Virus record (IMG/VR): IMGVR_UViG_2582580933_000022
DNA: 9,782 nt
Direction: 5' to 3' (one strand)
DNA from: a virus
Taxonomy: Duplodnaviria > Heunggongvirae > Uroviricota > Caudoviricetes
Position 1 is the first letter of the stretch; the number at the start of each line of letters is the position of its first letter. Below the pieces are notes generated by a model. The model was not told where the DNA came from and ran no database searches. It saw only the letters and a list, made by a program, of their open reading frames with translations. Shown here piece by piece: positions 3,811 through 9,782 of this stretch. The translations under genes were made by a program, and so were the position numbers.

Positions 3811-4045
3811 ACCCTTCACCTGTTCACCTTTTGCGATTTTCCCTTTTTATTCATGGTGTTAAGGGGTGAACAGTTTCACAAAAACTATTCACCAACTGTT
3901 CACCACTGTTCACCCTTAAAGCTCAATAAATAATCAAAAAGGTGAACAGTGAATAGTTTGGTGAACAGTTCACAAATAACTGTTCACCCTGTAATATACT
4001 GATATAAAAGACATTTATGACAGGGTGAACAGTGGTGAACAGTTA
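3811..4045. repeat. replication origin iteron array: 9 perfect copies of GGTGAACAG/CTGTTCACC plus degenerate copies, with AT-rich spacers
   Basis: Perfect 9-mers counted by hand: CTGTTCACC at 3820, 3896, 3906, 3980; GGTGAACAG at 3865, 3941, 3960, 4024, 4034. Degenerate copies near 3814, 3885, 3950. AT-rich stretches at 3921-3940 and 3991-4020. Located immediately 3' of the replication gene. The core TGTTCACC is, to my recollection, the P4 alpha-binding type I iteron of ori/crr. Confidence 0.8.
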
Positions 4046-4055
4046 TTCCATAAGT

Positions 4056-5861
4056 TTAATTTTTTCCATCGTCATTTGTGACCGATGCACATGATGGCAT
4101 CCAGTCTTCTGAATCCTCTGTCAGGGTCACATTTGAACGCAAACCGTGCTTCGTTTTCCGTTTCATATACTCCCTGCCATATTCCGCCATTGCCCCCGGC
4201 ATATCTTTACCGAAGCGCGTCAGTGTTACAGGTTTACCGAATCCGTGTGCCCTCATATATGCCAGATAGGCGTGATAAAGATACCTGCGCGGACTGAACG
4301 GAATAATTTCGGCATTACCCACTAACAGACCATCACACATTACCGACGACATGAGATAGCCGCAGAAGTCCACCAGCGAATCGCCCTCGCGTTTTATCAC
4401 CAGAGCTTCTTCTGATTTCTGCTGCTCATACAGCAGGCGTTTAGCTTCGTCCTGGTCAGAAAAACGAGTAAGCAGGTGGCGAATCACAACCGCCAGCTCT
4501 CCTTCTATTTTTTCTGCCAGCATGGGGTCGCGTTCGTTTTCCGGTACAACCTCCGAAAAATTGAATATCACCCGACGACGTGAGATCCCCCCGCTGCGGT
4601 CACTGAATGACATGGCGTTATTGTTCACCGCCAGCACGACCGCCTGAATGCGTGTTGAGTAGGGGGCTTTATGCTTCGGGTCGATTGCCACCTTGTCACC
4701 GCCTGTAATGGCCTTAATTCCTGCGCCATCACCAGCGTAGCGGGTCATATCCGGCATGATAATCAGCGAAAAGCCAACCACTAACGCGCGTTCCCTGGCA
4801 TCTTCCAGCGCCTTCATGCTTGCCGATACCGTGTTGGCCTTACCCGCCAGCATGGTGCAAATCTCCGCCATTACGCTTTTACCGCTTCCACCCGGCCCCG
4901 TTACCTCAAGAAATAACTGCCAGTCGTACCGGTTCGCCAGCACCATGAATAACGCCGCCAGTACGCGATCCGCTTTACGGTCATTCTCTGCCACCGAACG
5001 GCGCAACCATTTCCAGAAATTCGGCGCATGCGTTGCCAGCGTTTCCCCCTCTGCTGGTGGGCTGAACGGTAATTCACTGGCAATTAACAGCCAGTCGTTT
5101 TTGTCATGCTCCCGAAAATCGCCTGTCCGGGTATCAAAAACACCGTTACTGAATCCAATCAGGTTACGGGCGGTATTCCCCATTACGGGCAAACTTAACT
5201 TCATGGTATCGACCGCCGATTTGATGGCGTTCTGCGAATAACTGATCTCCGCATCAATAAAAATCTGCGCCATAGCCCGCTGTAACTCTTTATCCTGTAC
5301 TGGCTCCCATACAACGCCGTTGTAGTGGTGAACGGTGTCAGAGTCCGCATTAATTGCCAGTTCGCCGCCATAACGTGCCAGGAGAACTTCGCCGCGCTGG
5401 CTTGCTCCCATCTGGTTAAGCGCCAGTGGTGCGGCGCTGTCTTCTGTTTTTTTCTTAACAGGAAGCTGAATAACCAGACCATCAGAAAGATTCTGGCGCT
5501 CACGCTCCAGATATTCGCGCCACTCCTCCCGCTTCTGGCTGTGCATTCCCTCAGGGTAATATCTCGCATCCTGTACACCTGCCGCCGCCAGCTTTTGCCC
5601 GATGGCATTAATATTTGACGGCTTGATGTGGCCTGCCTTGTACAGCCGGACACAATAGCGACCATCGTCGATAATTTTCAGGTCTGCCAGTTCGTCAAGC
5701 TGGCTGTCTCCAAGCCATACAGGTGGCACGTTGTCGCCAGCAAGTCGCCCGTCCTGTTCCTGCCATTGTTTCGCGTGCGCCCAGGCATCGCTACCCGCAA
5801 AAATAATGACTTCGGTCATTTTGTCGTGTGGCTGTTTTTTTAAGTTCGGTGCCAGTTTCAT
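4056..5861 (-). CDS. replication initiator, P4-alpha / PICI Pri-Rep family (D5-like SF3 helicase P-loop domain)
   Basis: 601 aa; Walker A VTGPGGSGKSV, downstream Walker B-like hydrophobic stretch and GGDKVAID...RRRVIFNFSE region typical of phage/plasmid primase C-terminal (P4 family) helicase domains. ATG 5861 with AGGGG SD; ATGA overlap with the upstream ORF stop. Iterons lie immediately downstream. Confidence 0.8.
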   Translation of the reverse strand: MKLAPNLKKQPHDKMTEVIIFAGSDAWAHAKQWQEQDGRLAGDNVPPVWLGDSQLDELADLKIIDDGRYCVRLYKAGHIKPSNINAIGQKLAAAGVQDARYYPEGMHSQKREEWREYLERERQNLSDGLVIQLPVKKKTEDSAAPLALNQMGASQRGEVLLARYGGELAINADSDTVHHYNGVVWEPVQDKELQRAMAQIFIDAEISYSQNAIKSAVDTMKLSLPVMGNTARNLIGFSNGVFDTRTGDFREHDKNDWLLIASELPFSPPAEGETLATHAPNFWKWLRRSVAENDRKADRVLAALFMVLANRYDWQLFLEVTGPGGSGKSVMAEICTMLAGKANTVSASMKALEDARERALVVGFSLIIMPDMTRYAGDGAGIKAITGGDKVAIDPKHKAPYSTRIQAVVLAVNNNAMSFSDRSGGISRRRVIFNFSEVVPENERDPMLAEKIEGELAVVIRHLLTRFSDQDEAKRLLYEQQKSEEALVIKREGDSLVDFCGYLMSSVMCDGLLVGNAEIIPFSPRRYLYHAYLAYMRAHGFGKPVTLTRFGKDMPGAMAEYGREYMKRKTKHGLRSNVTLTEDSEDWMPSCASVTNDDGKN

Positions 5862-6412: not shown

Positions 6413-6641
6413 GGCTCACCACCACCATATCAGCCATGATAATTTTGCTGGCCTCATTCAGCGCCATATCAGCACTAAATTGCATAACAGCCAGTGAGTG
6501 AGGAACGAAAGCCCCGGCATATTCTGTTTCGCTGGTGGCGTGCTTATGCGCCTTGTCTGCGATAACAGAAATATCAATCAGCGCGTCCATCAGCGTTCTG
6601 ATAGCCTCGGCGGCTGCGTCCGGACGGGTGTTATTGCACAT
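6405..6641 (-). CDS. hypothetical protein, 78 aa, early operon
   Basis: ATG 6641 with AGGGGG SD 6 nt upstream; overlaps the stop of the candidate upstream ORF. No family recognised. Confidence 0.5.
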   Translation of the reverse strand: MCNNTRPDAAAEAIRTLMDALIDISVIADKAHKHATSETEYAGAFVPHSLAVMQFSADMALNEASKIIMADMVVVSHE

Positions 6642-6837
6642 GGCGCACCCCCTGACGAATACGGGCGGCGAATACCATCACGCAGCCAGCCGGGGATTGC
6701 TGGCGTGCTTCCTGTTCGCTGGTGGCCTCAATGGTAATCACGCGCGGCTGTGCCGTGCTCAGGGCGATAAAACGCCAGATGTATTTACTTAGGTTGTGCG
6801 AGTCCCGCCCTTGCGGGTGTATGGTATGATTTCTCAT
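6631..6837 (-). CDS. hypothetical protein, 68 aa; candidate first gene of the early operon
   Basis: This is the last 68 codons of the 399-aa ORF in the track. ATG 6837 with GAGG SD 5 nt upstream; stop/start overlap with the next gene (ATGTGCAATAA). The rest of the 399-aa frame is judged spurious. Confidence 0.4.
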   Translation of the reverse strand: MRNHTIHPQGRDSHNLSKYIWRFIALSTAQPRVITIEATSEQEARQQSPAGCVMVFAARIRQGVRHVQ

Positions 6838-6933
6838 AGCTGCCTCGATAATCTTGCTATCGTTGGTGGTTAGAAGCCCTGCGAGTGCTAACGACACTTG
6901 TGGGGCTTTGCTTTTTACTGTACCTACTGATAT

Positions 6934-6977
6934 TGTACGTACGTAACAGCAATGATAATAGGAGTTACGTACGTACA
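6934..6977. promoter_or_regulatory. operator: perfect 14-bp inverted repeat TGTACGTACGTAAC (6934-6947) / GTTACGTACGTACA (6964-6977), 16-bp spacer, overlapping the RBS and ATG of the RHH gene
   Basis: Seen directly; each arm contains the self-complementary core GTACGTAC. Candidate sigma70 elements TTGCTT (6908-6913), 17-bp spacer, TATTGT (6931-6936) sit just upstream on the plus strand. The region is also the divergent intergenic for the minus-strand early operon. Confidence 0.6.
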
Positions 6978-7168
6978 TGTCAACATTAAAGCGCGATAAA
7001 TCGCCACGCGGTGAGGGATGGTCTCCAACCTTCCAAATCAGAATCAGTAAAGAGCTACGCCAACAAGTAAATGAGGCGGCAACTTCTGACGGTCTAACCC
7101 TTGGTAACTGGTTTAAAGAATTAGCTAGGGCAGAACTAAAGCGGCGCGGCATTGAACCAAAAGGATAA
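6977..7168 (+). CDS. ribbon-helix-helix (Arc/MetJ/CopG-type) DNA-binding protein, 63 aa
   Basis: Segment FQIRISKELRQQVNEAATSDGLTLGNWFKELARAEL has the beta-strand / helix / GxT-turn / helix layout of RHH proteins. ATG 6977 lies inside the right operator arm. AT-rich coding sequence. Confidence 0.6.
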   Translation: MSTLKRDKSPRGEGWSPTFQIRISKELRQQVNEAATSDGLTLGNWFKELARAELKRRGIEPKG

Positions 7169-7195
7169 AAGCAATTTCGTTTAAGGTAACACGAT

Positions 7196-7549
7196 ATGAA
7201 ATACGAATTCTTTGCAACCAGTAGTTCAGGAATGGATGTATATATAGTGACCGTATCCAATGACACTGGGCCTTTAATTATGAAATGTAACTGCGCTGCT
7301 GGTGAGAAGGGGATTTTATGCAGGCATAGAAAAGCTCTTATTACTCGAAAAATTAAAGGTGTTTTTACACCGCCAAGGCGTAACGACCCAGAAAAACTAA
7401 AGGAAGCAATGGACTTAATTGCTGTGTATGGGATCGAAAGAAAGTTAGAATTATACACTGCAGAGTTAGAACAGGCGGAGCAAACATGGTTGATCGTTCG
7501 TTCTGCTATAAAATCCAAGATCAACTCTCTTGTTGAACCCAAAGGCTGA
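7196..7549 (+). CDS. small SWIM zinc-finger domain protein, 117 aa, function unknown
   Basis: Motif VYIVTVSNDTGPLIMKCNCAAGEKGILCRHRKAL matches the SWIM signature CxCx(n)CxH with the conserved upstream hydrophobic strand. AAGGT SD 9 nt upstream; 27-nt gap after the RHH gene; AT-rich like its partner. Confidence 0.55.
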   Translation: MKYEFFATSSSGMDVYIVTVSNDTGPLIMKCNCAAGEKGILCRHRKALITRKIKGVFTPPRRNDPEKLKEAMDLIAVYGIERKLELYTAELEQAEQTWLIVRSAIKSKINSLVEPKG

Positions 7550-7655
7550 CAGCCCACCAGCAAGCCAGCACACTGATCACATTGCCAACCAGCCGCAAAT
7601 GTGGCATTGTTGGCTATGCTCATGCGTTGGGGATAACGTGTAGCTTGTGTCGAGG

Positions 7656-7684
7656 GGCCACCGTAGCGGGTGGCCTTTGTTTTG
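7656..7684 (+). terminator. Rho-independent terminator ending the RHH-SWIM operon
   Basis: GGCCACC-gtagcg-GGTGGCC perfect 7-bp GC-rich stem followed by TTTGTTTT; about 105 nt downstream of the SWIM gene stop. Confidence 0.65.
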
Positions 7685-7834
7685 CCTGTTATCCGGCAAT
7701 TGTGGCGCTTCGCCACACGGTTGATATAATTCCCCTGCACTGATCCATTTTTTTCGCAGCAGGTTAATTGTTCGCAAGGGCGCTCCGGCAACGGGGCGCT
7801 TTTTGTTATGTTCATCGCGTTACGCCTCACACCA

Positions 7835-8041
7835 TTACGCAGCCGTTCCGCGCGCTTCTTCCTCGCGCTCTTTCAGCCAGGCCAGCACTTCATCTTCATA
7901 CCAGCCAACACGACGCAGACCGATTTTGAAGCCTTTCGGGAATTTTCCGGCGTTGATCATGTCCTGTAGCGAACTGTCTGCCTTGATGCGCAGAATATTT
8001 TTTACTTCCTGACGGGTAAGTATTTTTCTGATTGTTTCCAC
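7835..8041 (-). CDS. alpA: AlpA-family prophage transcriptional regulator / excisionase-like HTH protein, 68 aa
   Basis: ILTRQEVKNILRIKADSSLQDMINAGKFPKGFKIGLRRVGWYEDEVLAWL matches the AlpA pattern (compare E. coli AlpA ...ILRLPAVIQKTGMARATIYDWLNPKSPRYDATFPKKRQLGVKSVGWIEAEIDEWL). GTG start at 8041 with GAGGT SD 8 nt upstream; canonical position next to int. Confidence 0.8.
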   Translation of the reverse strand: METIRKILTRQEVKNILRIKADSSLQDMINAGKFPKGFKIGLRRVGWYEDEVLAWLKEREEEARGTAA

Positions 8042-8540: not shown

Positions 8541-9782
8541 TTACACGGCACGGATACCCCTTTTACCACTGGCTATGGTCACTCCGGTAGCTGCGGCCTC
8601 TACAAATTCCCCCCACCAGCGCATAAGCACCACGCGCTTTTCCAGGTAGTTACTTCGGTTATATGCTCGCCTTACCTCGTTCGTGTCCACGTGTGCGAGC
8701 GCGGCCTCGATTACGTCCGGCTCGAATCCTTCCTCGTTCGCTGCTGTGCTGAATATGGCGCGTAATCCGTGAGACACCAGCACACCAGCGTAACCCATCC
8801 GGCGCAATGCGGCGTTAGCGGTCTGGCTGCTCATTGGCAGCATCGGGTTTTTAAGGCTGGGAAAAACGTGTTCCCTATGTGCGCTGATTGGCTTCATGGT
8901 TTCCAGTACAGCCATAGCCTGACCGCAAAGGGGGATCACATGGTCACGGCGCATCTTCATGCGTCCGGCTGGAATCGTCCAGGTTTCGGCATCGAGATCT
9001 ATTTCTTCCCAGCGTGCGGCGGCTGCTTCGGCTGGGCGTGCTACGGTCAGCAGTTGCCACTCAATCAGCAATCTGGTTTGCCGTTCTATGCTGGCGACCG
9101 ATAAATCGTGCATTAGCTGCGGTAGCTGTTCCGGTCGGATGGTTGGCATGTGCTTTTTGGTGGGTGAGGGGAATGCCTTGCGGACGTTCGCGGCGGTGTT
9201 GATGTCAATCAGCCCACTGTTGGCAGCAAAATCCATCACTTCATTGATGCGTTGTAAAACGCGTTTCAGGGTTTCCAGGTTGCCGCGTGCTTTAATGGGT
9301 GTGAGTATCTCAACAAAGCGGCGAGCTGTGAGGGTATCTATTGGCGTGTTTCCGATGTACGGGAATACGTATTTTTCCAGGGATCGCCAGATATCCTTAA
9401 TCGTGTTGTAAGCCAGATTCTGGCCTTTTTTCATCTCGTACCAGTCCGAGGCAACTTTTTCGAACGTGTTGCCCTTTTTCCGACTCTCTGCTTCACGTTT
9501 CCGGCGTTCGTGGTCCTGTGGGTCAACTCCCTTCGCTATGAGTGACCTGTATTCATTCCGTCGTTCTCTGGCATCGGACAGGGAAACATCATTCAGCGAT
9601 CCGAGGCTGATGATAGTCCGTTTTTTATCTGCCGGGCGGTAGTACGTAAAACGCCAGATTTTTGATCCGGAGGGTTTCACCAGAAGAAATAATCCTCCAC
9701 CATCCTGCAGGGTGTATTCCTTTTCCCCAGGTCGTGCGTTTTTGATCTCCGTAATGGTTAGTGGGGTGGTTTTTCGTGCCAT
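8541..9782 (-). CDS. int: site-specific tyrosine recombinase, P4-type integrase
   Basis: 413 aa; N-terminal arm-type domain (TLQDGGGLFLLVKPSGSKIWRFTYY...ISLGS...SLSDARERR) and C-terminal catalytic region (HGLRAIFST...ALAHVDTNEVRRAYNRSNYLEKR) typical of P4 / CP4-57 IntA-like integrases. The ATG is bases 9782-9780, the last three bases of the window, so attachment site and any target tRNA are outside it. Confidence 0.9.
   Translation of the reverse strand: MARKTTPLTITEIKNARPGEKEYTLQDGGGLFLLVKPSGSKIWRFTYYRPADKKRTIISLGSLNDVSLSDARERRNEYRSLIAKGVDPQDHERRKREAESRKKGNTFEKVASDWYEMKKGQNLAYNTIKDIWRSLEKYVFPYIGNTPIDTLTARRFVEILTPIKARGNLETLKRVLQRINEVMDFAANSGLIDINTAANVRKAFPSPTKKHMPTIRPEQLPQLMHDLSVASIERQTRLLIEWQLLTVARPAEAAAARWEEIDLDAETWTIPAGRMKMRRDHVIPLCGQAMAVLETMKPISAHREHVFPSLKNPMLPMSSQTANAALRRMGYAGVLVSHGLRAIFSTAANEEGFEPDVIEAALAHVDTNEVRRAYNRSNYLEKRVVLMRWWGEFVEAAATGVTIASGKRGIRAV

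Follow-up and report, generated by a model that had tools for sequence, protein, structure and literature searches.

A 14-bp inverted repeat at positions 6934-6977 of the window, i.e. the whole 9782-bp stretch of DNA analysed here, is probably the bipartite operator of the adjacent Arc-like ribbon-helix-helix (RHH) repressor, and would control both the repressor gene, rhh, and the replication operon of the phage satellite that carries it. Computed here are (i) the repeat and its non-randomness, (ii) the RHH fold of the protein, (iii) a covariation between protein and DNA, (iv) the constraint on a -35 hexamer as DNA, and (v) a scaffold common to the alleles.

In the mechanism that we infer for binding, start sites, repression and the lifting of repression, each arm of the repeat would consist of a core of the form GT-N4-AC, which is GTACGTAC here, and 2-4 inner bases, with one RHH dimer per core reading the DNA by a two-stranded β-ribbon through residues T18, Q20 and R22. 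The left and right arms, O_L and O_R, would bracket the -10 region of a strong leftward promoter, P_L, and O_L would in addition overlap the extended -10 and the start of the rhh promoter, P_rhh. Occupancy of the operator would silence P_L, and so the Icd-like/primase/SSB replication operon, and would place rhh under autoregulation along with the passenger gene behind it, here a SWIM gene. The operator, both promoters and rhh (~6917-7170) may form one exchangeable, immunity-like cassette, filling the slot of YlcI/YnfO genes with other palindromes in EcCICFT073-type PICIs; AlpA-driven convergent transcription and a helper-encoded anti-repressor are both possible routes to the relief of repression.

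Satellite context, inverted repeat and RHH protein

The window represents a PICI-like E. coli phage satellite of the capsid-forming type. Its - strand carries (i) the integrase (8541-9782), (ii) AlpA (7835-8041), (iii) the Icd-like gene (6631-6837; NCBIfam phage_ICD_like, 69.8 bits, and RefSeq annotation of the homologue in L001), first in the leftward replication operon, (iv) a D5-type primase (4056-5861), and (v) two small ORFs and the genes of a DUF4222 protein, an SSB, the major capsid protein and a small-terminase-like protein. The + strand carries rhh (6977-7168), followed by the gene of a 117-aa SWIM zinc-finger protein (7196-7549; Pfam SWIM, 22.4 bits, above cut-off; phrog_13130, of unknown function) and by two terminator-like hairpins (7653-7678 and 7776-7803), which would end the rhh-SWIM transcript before the convergent alpA. 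The - strand between alpA and rhh comprises weak terminator-like sites only, which would, speculatively, permit alpA read-through across rhh. On the opposite side, a conserved + strand hairpin followed by a T-run (6873-6909; -26 kcal/mol, z = -3.7) is terminator-like and forms the left border of the exchangeable module, its 3' flank overlapping the -35 of P_rhh; in other alleles the structure is kept with differing sequences.

The distribution of these segments among complete E. coli genomes delimits the module. The Icd region is common to ~1350 of 5426 genomes, and homology with most E. coli PICIs ends at 6879-6916, just right of the hairpin; the segment 6917-7170, comprising the palindrome and the RHH gene, is present in 24 E. 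coli genomes, with SWIM linked in 7. Ecol_224 (CP018948) is one strain in which the island occurs. The SWIM gene is missing from the other module copies L074-L076, where a tiny ORF (41-58 aa) or nothing follows rhh, and from all non-E. coli loci; the Pectobacterium cargo comprises an AAA ATPase and a methyl-directed restriction-like pair. In every E. coli copy examined, the RHH gene has alpA/int on one side and the Icd-like gene on the other, lies on the opposite strand and is the sole gene divergent from the main operon, with or without a gene downstream. SWIM is thus an optional passenger, the exchangeable unit being the operator, both promoters and rhh (~6917-7170).

A DNA search of the phage collection with positions 6600-7600 returned zero matches. 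A P4/P1-type immunity RNA is unsupported, since an Rfam scan of the whole window (E <=1) disclosed neither C4/CI nor isrK nor any real family, and returned spurious miRNA-like matches on iterons only. RHH-SWIM as a fixed defence cassette was likewise rejected: PADLOC gives nothing solid, the SWIM protein matching PDC-S62 (E = 2e-4) over only a fraction of the model, and SWIM is missing from most copies.

O_L (TGTACGTACGTAAC, 6934-6947) and O_R (GTTACGTACGTACA, 6964-6977) are 100% complementary over 14 bp and separated by a 16-nt spacer (6948-6963), by direct reading and by repeat search, exactly as the earlier note had claimed for a perfect 14-bp inverted repeat with self-complementary cores. 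Extension is blocked inward by A6948/A6963 and outward by T6933/T6978. Each arm contains one copy of the self-complementary 8-mer GTACGTAC, at 6935-6942 and 6969-6976, with core centres 34 bp apart; these two are the only copies in the window, a degenerate core-like GTACCTAC lying at 6920-6927, and the 14-mer has no other occurrence in the window with up to 3 mismatches allowed. The final base of O_R is the A of the rhh ATG, and the Shine-Dalgarno sequence AGGAG occupies 6960-6964. A perfect inverted repeat of at least 14 bp with a spacer of at most 40 arose in 0 of 300 dinucleotide-preserving shuffles of the 9782-bp window, the longest, 13 bp, appearing once. The one other 14-bp inverted repeat of the window lies within the iteron cluster of the replication origin (3979-4033; iterons at 3820-4033).

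That the palindrome arose by chance, or serves a non-regulatory purpose as a cruciform, a recombination site or an oriT-like site, is highly improbable. GTAC repeats are of low complexity and self-complementary, so that two copies automatically form an inverted repeat; against this, none of the shuffles gave one of this length, the palindrome recurs in several genera with its placement relative to the ATG unchanged, and its inner flanks covary symmetrically beyond the self-complementary core. The window also contains no relaxase. The conservation of the feature effectively refutes this explanation.

The 63-aa product of rhh, a presumed repressor, displays the RHH layout, with (i) a basic N-terminal arm (residues 1-15), disordered in the AF2 model, (ii) a β-strand, SPTFQIRI (16-23), and (iii) two α-helices (25-37 and 42-56). 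The model, fed with an alignment of 22 homologues (63-98% identity), shows a core pLDDT of ~85 and an extended stretch at 16-23 preceding the two helices, the β-strand-helix-helix topology of the RHH superfamily. RHH proteins are obligate dimers with an intermolecular β-ribbon; DSSP gives no β-strand assignment for the monomer model, as expected if the strand needs a partner. Foldseek against the PDB places the Arc repressor first (1myl/1par, TMt 0.85), followed by PutA, AmrZ, CopG and MazE, the top matches all being RHH proteins, and a profile search against PDB sequences also gives Arc as the best, marginal match (E = 0.11, 16 bits); the PHROG 'Arc-like repressor' matches with E = 1.9e-4. 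The Arc alignment equates P17-T18-F19-Q20-I21-R22 with Arc P8-Q9-F10-N11-L12-R13, placing the predicted reading residues on Gln9, Asn11 and Arg13, the base-contacting residues of Arc.

Many homologues are named 'HicB family antitoxin' by NCBI. HicB carries an RHH DNA-binding motif at its C-terminus, and it is this motif that both proteins have in common. The RHH protein scores 18.2 bits against Pfam HicB, under the cut-off of 21, comprises the RHH motif only, with no N-terminal HicB domain, and has no toxin partner: the adjacent gene in the window shows no HicA-family match, the neighbour being SWIM, a 41-58-aa ORF or nothing in the copies examined. A toxin-antitoxin assignment was rejected on these grounds, and the antitoxin label is probably a misnomer for the family. 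Against the YlcI_YnfO_N model (NF041551) the protein scores 20.7 bits with a cut-off of 30, and Pfam DUF3950 does not match. The RHH protein is thus not demonstrably a member of the curated YlcI/YnfO family, being under the cut-off, and is not a HicB antitoxin.

Conservation of the paired cores and covariation with the RHH protein

Protein homology alone served to choose the loci for comparison: a protein-alignment scan with one genome per species recovered 71, in Enterobacterales and one Advenella MAG, and ~50 of them display two GTACGTAC cores upstream of the RHH gene. The right core adjoins the ATG in nearly all homologous loci (GTACGTAC-ATGTCA), and the placement of the right arm over the RBS and ATG of the RHH gene, proposed in the earlier note, therefore recurs always or nearly always in homologues. 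The left core lies 31-35 bp from the right core, centre to centre (mode 34, 49 loci); this spacing departs from the adjacent sub-sites of characterised RHH operators (~11 bp for Arc, 8 bp for MetJ), and cooperative tetramer binding is doubtful, because these distances are not integral helical turns. The core is symmetric to 94-100% in a set of 34 distinct arm pairs, and at the first inner flanking position (+1) symmetry is found in 85% of pairs versus 51% with partners permuted; the outer flanks are asymmetric, which suggests a functional arm of the 8-bp core plus 2-4 inner bases and outer flanks that probably correspond to promoter elements outside the symmetry. The 14-bp arm of the window is at the long end of the range among loci.

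The cores follow the identity of two β-strand residues. Of the distinct loci with T18/Q20, 48 of 51 carry at least one GTACGTAC upstream and 34 carry two; it is found in 0 of 16 loci with other residues (Fisher 9e-13, loci counted without phylogenetic correction). One canonical core only is present in 14 T18/Q20 loci; loci such as L038 and L041 keep the left site alone, at the -10 of P_rhh, and L050 and L056 display a hybrid pair, with GTACGTAC on the left and a GTCCATAC-like core on the right. Where residues 18/20 change, both cores change together, in ~5 independent switches (again without phylogenetic correction), comprising (i) I18/S20 in L006, with left TGTATGGACC and right GGTCCATACA; (ii) P18/H20 in L034 and L035, with left GTGTACACCTA and right TAGGTGTGCAC; (iii) M18/N20 in L043, with left AGTGTATAGACC and right GGTCTATACACT; (iv) Q18/Q20 in Pasteurella phage Pmp8 (a 15-kb PICI-like record), with left ATGGTAATTACCAT and right GGTATATACC; and (v) A18/Q20 in Klebsiella phage P12620-1, with left AGGTGTGTACCTAT and right ATAGGTACGCAC. 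R22 is kept in all switched lineages. The outer GT..AC is kept as well, except in Pasteurella Pmp8, where the core reads GGTA-NN-TACC. The covariation of residues 18/20 with both cores suggests that it is the RHH protein that binds here; if this β-strand reading is true, a T18I/Q20S RHH would shift its preference to GTATGGAC sites.

A different binder on the palindrome (AlpA, a regulator from a helper phage, or a host factor, for example), with RHH acting elsewhere, is very unlikely. Satellite induction is known to be under helper-phage control (PMC6092414), which would favour a regulator of that origin; the site, in contrast, changes along with RHH residues and stays with the RHH gene where AlpA, Icd and primase are missing, as in Pectobacterium L017. 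Unrelated small RHH genes are also found directly behind paired GTACGTAC cores. Moreover, GTACGTAC has no further occurrence in the window and none in the 49 kb surrounding another copy, of which ~24 kb is embedding prophage: the extra copies of the motif that the earlier note had suggested looking for were not found there, leaving a regulon-wide or helper-targeting role unsupported. A scan of viral contigs for the paired core yielded at least 120 loci, 37 of those listed carrying this RHH. Among the remaining loci, some carry other RHH families and others are probably chance occurrences; the raw count is for this reason left out as evidence. The attribution of the palindrome to the RHH protein, as the earlier note had it, is thus borne out at the level of comparison, the paired cores travelling with the gene across genera and both arms covarying with the β-strand residues, which argues for a true operator.

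Predicted nested promoters and the counterparts in other alleles

P_L occupies 6955-6983 on the - strand and comprises the -35 TTGACA (6983-6978), a 17-nt spacer and the -10 TATTAT (6960-6955), with a predicted start at ~6948. It is a near-consensus σ70 match (11/12) and the sole match of at least 10/12 in the window; a match of at least 11/12 anywhere in 9.8 kb is found in 21 of 200 shuffled windows. The promoter is nested in the palindrome and points towards the primase operon, whose first gene, the Icd-like one, would be reached through a leader of ~110 nt. O_R fills the P_L spacer between -35 and -10, against the -35, and O_L lies at ~+2..+15 of P_L. The predicted P_rhh occupies 6908-6936 on the + strand, with a -35-like TTGCTT (6908-6913), a 17-nt spacer, TG at 6928-6929 and TATTGT at 6931-6936; it is a consensus-level prediction, and TGnTAnnGT is seen in the same register in most loci. 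The extended -10 ends inside the left core, implying a predicted rhh start at ~6943, within the left arm, so that O_L would lie at ~-9..+5 of P_rhh. The overlap of the left arm with the -10/+1 of the RHH promoter, also proposed earlier, accordingly agrees with a conserved extended -10 that appears to end within the left core.

The position of the predicted start bears on a further explanation, in which the arms would form a 14-bp stem in the rhh mRNA, leaving the SD in its loop and the AUG at its foot, and would throttle translation or stabilise the transcript, the symmetry of the DNA being secondary. An RNA from 6934 folds at -21.1 kcal/mol (z = -5.9), and the compensatory two-arm changes also fit an RNA stem. 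A start at ~6943, in contrast, predicted because the conserved -10 ends in the left core, leaves a 5-bp stem only (-4.5 kcal/mol, z = +1.3). In addition, single arm mismatches divide into 4 G·U versus 4 A·C or C·U, with no wobble preference, several loci display 8-bp cores 27 nt apart or a single core, and an RNA stem would leave unexplained why the cores vary together with β-strand residues 18 and 20. An RNA hairpin has therefore little probability as the function of the repeat.

The -35 of P_L is the reverse complement of TGTCAA in rhh codons 1-3 (ATG-TCA-Axx), and TTGACA is perfect in most motif-bearing loci. Among 51 distinct homologous coding sequences, Ser2 is encoded by TCA in 46/46 and codon 3 begins with A in 48/48; the invariant β-strand residues use mixed codons, Ser16 being TCT in 22, TCA in 15, TCG in 7 and TCC in 4. 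In L043 the ATG is 16 nt further off, yet TTGAAG still adjoins the right core. Taken together, the invariant codons 1-3 and L043 indicate that the hexamer is constrained as DNA and not as coding sequence. The -10 of P_L matches 4-5 of 6 positions in many homologous loci, in AT-rich surroundings.

These observations weigh on the most serious alternative, an unlikely one by our estimate, in which RHH controls rhh and SWIM only, P_L is a by-product of the start-codon context and an AT-rich spacer, and AlpA-dependent transcription arriving from the right is all that drives the icd-primase operon. The published model, with AlpA as activator and most genes unidirectional (PMC6092414, PMC10111431), speaks for autoregulation only, as do the weak P_L -10 in many homologues and loci such as L038 and L041 that keep just the left site at the P_rhh -10. 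P_L is, on the other hand, the best σ70 match of the whole window, TGTCAA is invariant at synonymous positions, the -35 stays beside the right core in L043 despite the moved ATG, and a -35 abutting the operator recurs in the YlcI alleles and the L077-type family; the conservation of the -35 at the level of DNA, in particular, weakens the alternative. If the action of RHH is confined to autoregulation, this is an RHH operator of the ordinary kind. As to control of both directions by the bipartite operator, the earlier note had suggested that one repressor could gate both the cassette and the replication operon: the nesting of P_L in the palindrome and the conservation of its -35 as DNA lend this support, but the 'cassette' is not a fixed unit, SWIM being optional.

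A comparable arrangement is displayed by the alleles that occupy the slot elsewhere. In all four sampled PICIs without the RHH module, the slot is filled by a YlcI/YnfO-family gene, and the allele repeats comprise (i) GTGTGTTTCATG-N9-CATGAAACACAC, (ii) GTGTAAGACAC-N14-GTGTCTTACAC, and (iii) three copies of GGTGTTGAACAC. In each YlcI/YnfO allele a - strand TTGACG adjoins the right arm and a - strand -10 lies within the repeat; the L199 and L200/L002 alleles display a further half-site after the + strand -10 of the gene. L082, a close relative of the window satellite (capsid protein 95% and primase 85% identical), encodes a DUF3950/YlcI-type protein of 59 aa with two TGGTACGTACCA cores. For an unrelated 58-aa RHH protein (L077 type), encoded on other viral contigs, the gene's own promoter has TTGACA-TT-GTACGTAC in its spacer, with a second site past the start, and other unrelated small RHH genes lie directly behind paired GTACGTAC cores. 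The YlcI/YnfO alleles and the L077 type together suggest a recurring RHH-promoter design, with one site in the spacer against the -35 and one past +1; in the window, that two-site design belongs to the leftward promoter P_L. The literature searched yielded no published function for YlcI/YnfO.

Relation to known repressors and significance for Gram-negative PICIs

The closest parallel is Arc with the immI region of P22. Arc and the RHH protein are both small (~53-63 aa), with a basic N-terminal arm, and Arc is the best match in fold and in sequence. At P22 immI, a strong promoter belonging to a divergent, overlapping pair holds the operator between its -35 and -10, and the repressor is autoregulated; the arrangement proposed here would likewise combine autoregulation with an operator in the spacer of a strong member of a divergent promoter pair. 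On its single operator of 21 bp, Arc sits as a dimer of dimers, the sub-sites being ~11 bp apart. The window, unlike Arc, does not show a single 21-bp operator and displays two separate sites 34 bp apart that bracket the -10; furthermore, the repressor gene is on the strand opposite to the main repressed promoter, and its first codons carry the -35 of that promoter. With a marginal similarity (E = 0.11) and a different operator geometry, membership of the Arc family is not demonstrable from the sequences compared.

MetJ binds with one RHH dimer per 8-bp self-complementary met-box, AGACGTCT, the boxes being tandem and contiguous (8 bp), and needs a corepressor. The 8-bp self-complementary box, GTACGTAC here, is common to both systems, whereas the cores here are 34 bp apart and not tandem or contiguous; no sequence relationship between the RHH protein and MetJ was detected. 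The YlcI/YnfO genes (NF041551, DUF3950) of EcCICFT073-type E. coli PICIs are like rhh in occupying the + strand slot between alpA/int and Icd, divergent from the replication operon, and in having an allele-specific palindrome adjoining a - strand TTGACG -35. They differ in that their gene promoter and start are ~40-60 bp further from P_L, the window being compacted into 50 bp.

The comparison extends to Stl/Rpr of SaPIs and Gram-positive PICIs, a repressor encoded by a divergent gene that acts at the divergent promoter region and keeps the island quiescent (PMC6092414). Likewise, rhh is divergent from the main operon, with predicted sites in the divergent promoter region (P_L/P_rhh). The RHH protein is, however, far smaller (63 aa), with int and alpA co-oriented with the main operon and convergent with rhh, and no homology to Stl/Rpr was detected.

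The induction of Gram-negative PICIs has been credited to the activator AlpA, with no repressor described and the matter called unclear (PMC6092414), and in later surveys the regulators named for satellites are limited to AlpA, MerR or Stl (PMC10085698, PMC10111431). The literature searched contained nothing relevant on an RHH, YlcI or other repressor in Gram-negative PICIs, and no description of the RHH/YlcI slot. The RHH protein is accordingly a candidate for the repressor missing from these descriptions, proposed on comparative grounds, and with its allelic versions it would offer a natural set of orthogonal repressor/operator pairs. As an RHH repressor with its operator, the system would be of a known type, and it is the satellite context that raises its interest. 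The 'HicB antitoxin' annotation of the family is suggested to be wrong.

A wider reading, to which we give somewhat less than even chances as a whole, is that the RHH protein and its YlcI/YnfO counterparts are unrecognised master repressors of Gram-negative PICIs and cf-PICIs, with swappable cassettes that define satellite 'immunity' groups, as the imm regions do in lambdoid phages. Induction would then proceed by removal of the repressor, via AlpA-driven convergent transcription over rhh or a helper anti-repressor. If this is true, the cassette would be a portable regulated promoter for cargo, e.g. SWIM here and the AAA ATPase with the restriction-like pair in Pectobacterium.

Leftward flank of the probable operator

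A conserved hairpin (6873-6909), followed by a T-run to 6916, separates the start of the Icd-like gene from the paired-core operator. Its stem contains three G·U pairs when read as plus-strand RNA, and any role at the RNA level is assigned to that strand because the same pairs become A·C on the minus strand. Upstream of the hairpin, the window carries neither a plus-strand gene nor a plus-strand promoter. The hairpin structure, with a differing sequence, is also present in E. coli PICIs bearing a YlcI/YnfO-family gene in the slot of rhh, in Pasteurella Pmp8 and in Klebsiella phage P12620-1; the element may represent an insulator terminator or the end of an icd-antisense RNA. Between this hairpin and the operator, a degenerate third core, GTACCTAC (6920-6927, one mismatch), lies 15 bp to the left of the left core, in the spacer of the promoter predicted for rhh. 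The E. coli allele L076, 85% identical, does not conserve this third core.

The Icd-like protein (6631-6837) matches PHROG families annotated as 'transcriptional repressor' (phrog_6196, E = 7e-45), and the first leftward gene of Pmp8 encodes a 187-aa 'transcriptional repressor'. The protein made first from the leftward operon may be a regulator in its own right.

Similar sites ahead of other putative regulators

Among the matches listed, paired GTACGTAC cores also directly precede other small RHH genes, the products of which show no detectable relatedness to the RHH protein of the window. The viral contigs concerned are (i) those encoding a 58-aa RHH protein, with the operator located within the promoter spacer (TTGACATTGTACGTACA; L077, L140, L149, L187, L196 and L176), and (ii) those of near relatives of the satellite, encoding a 59-aa DUF3950/YlcI-type protein, with two copies of TGGTACGTACCA (L082, L119, L192 and L095). 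In addition, GGTGTACGTACACC occurs three times in GC-rich viral contigs (L079, L083, L089, L174, L129, L135, L163 and L185), and TTTTTTGTACGTACAATAATTC repeats spaced by 89 bp occur in others (L078, L146, L150, L161 and L190); both may be binding sites of further regulators.

A Pantoea/Erwinia clade of RHH homologues (L059-L073), with the β-strand SAAFQLRI, lacks paired cores upstream of its RHH genes, displaying instead a conserved hairpin with the loop GTGTTGGTAGCGC, followed by a T-run ca. 30 nt 5' of the start codon. The regulation of this clade looks different.

Iterons and integration setting

Clustered GGTGAACAGT iterons, facing both ways, occupy 3820-4033, immediately downstream of the primase gene. 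The cluster includes a second perfect 14-bp inverted repeat (3979-3992/4020-4033) and is presumably the replication origin of the satellite. Rfam miRNA matches in the window are spurious and arise from this cluster. Two E. coli copies of the satellite, in L001 (10334-11861) and L074 (8092-9617), are integrated beside a DUF1441 gene and a truncated gene for the large subunit of a phage terminase, surroundings that fit the helper-embedded PICI configuration (PMC10111431).

Cargo behind the RHH module

The gene for a 117-aa SWIM zinc-finger protein (7196-7549; phrog_13130) is linked to the RHH module in only a few E. coli genomes and looks like a passenger expressed from the RHH-controlled promoter. 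Behind the same RHH/operator module, Pectobacterium sp. PL152 (L017, 4482-6182) carries a different cargo, comprising a 392-aa AAA-type ATPase and a protein matching the PADLOC model of a methyl-directed type II restriction enzyme (E = 5.5e-41). In several Pectobacterium genomes the module is present two to three times, its cores being the same in each copy; cross-regulation among the copies is therefore possible.
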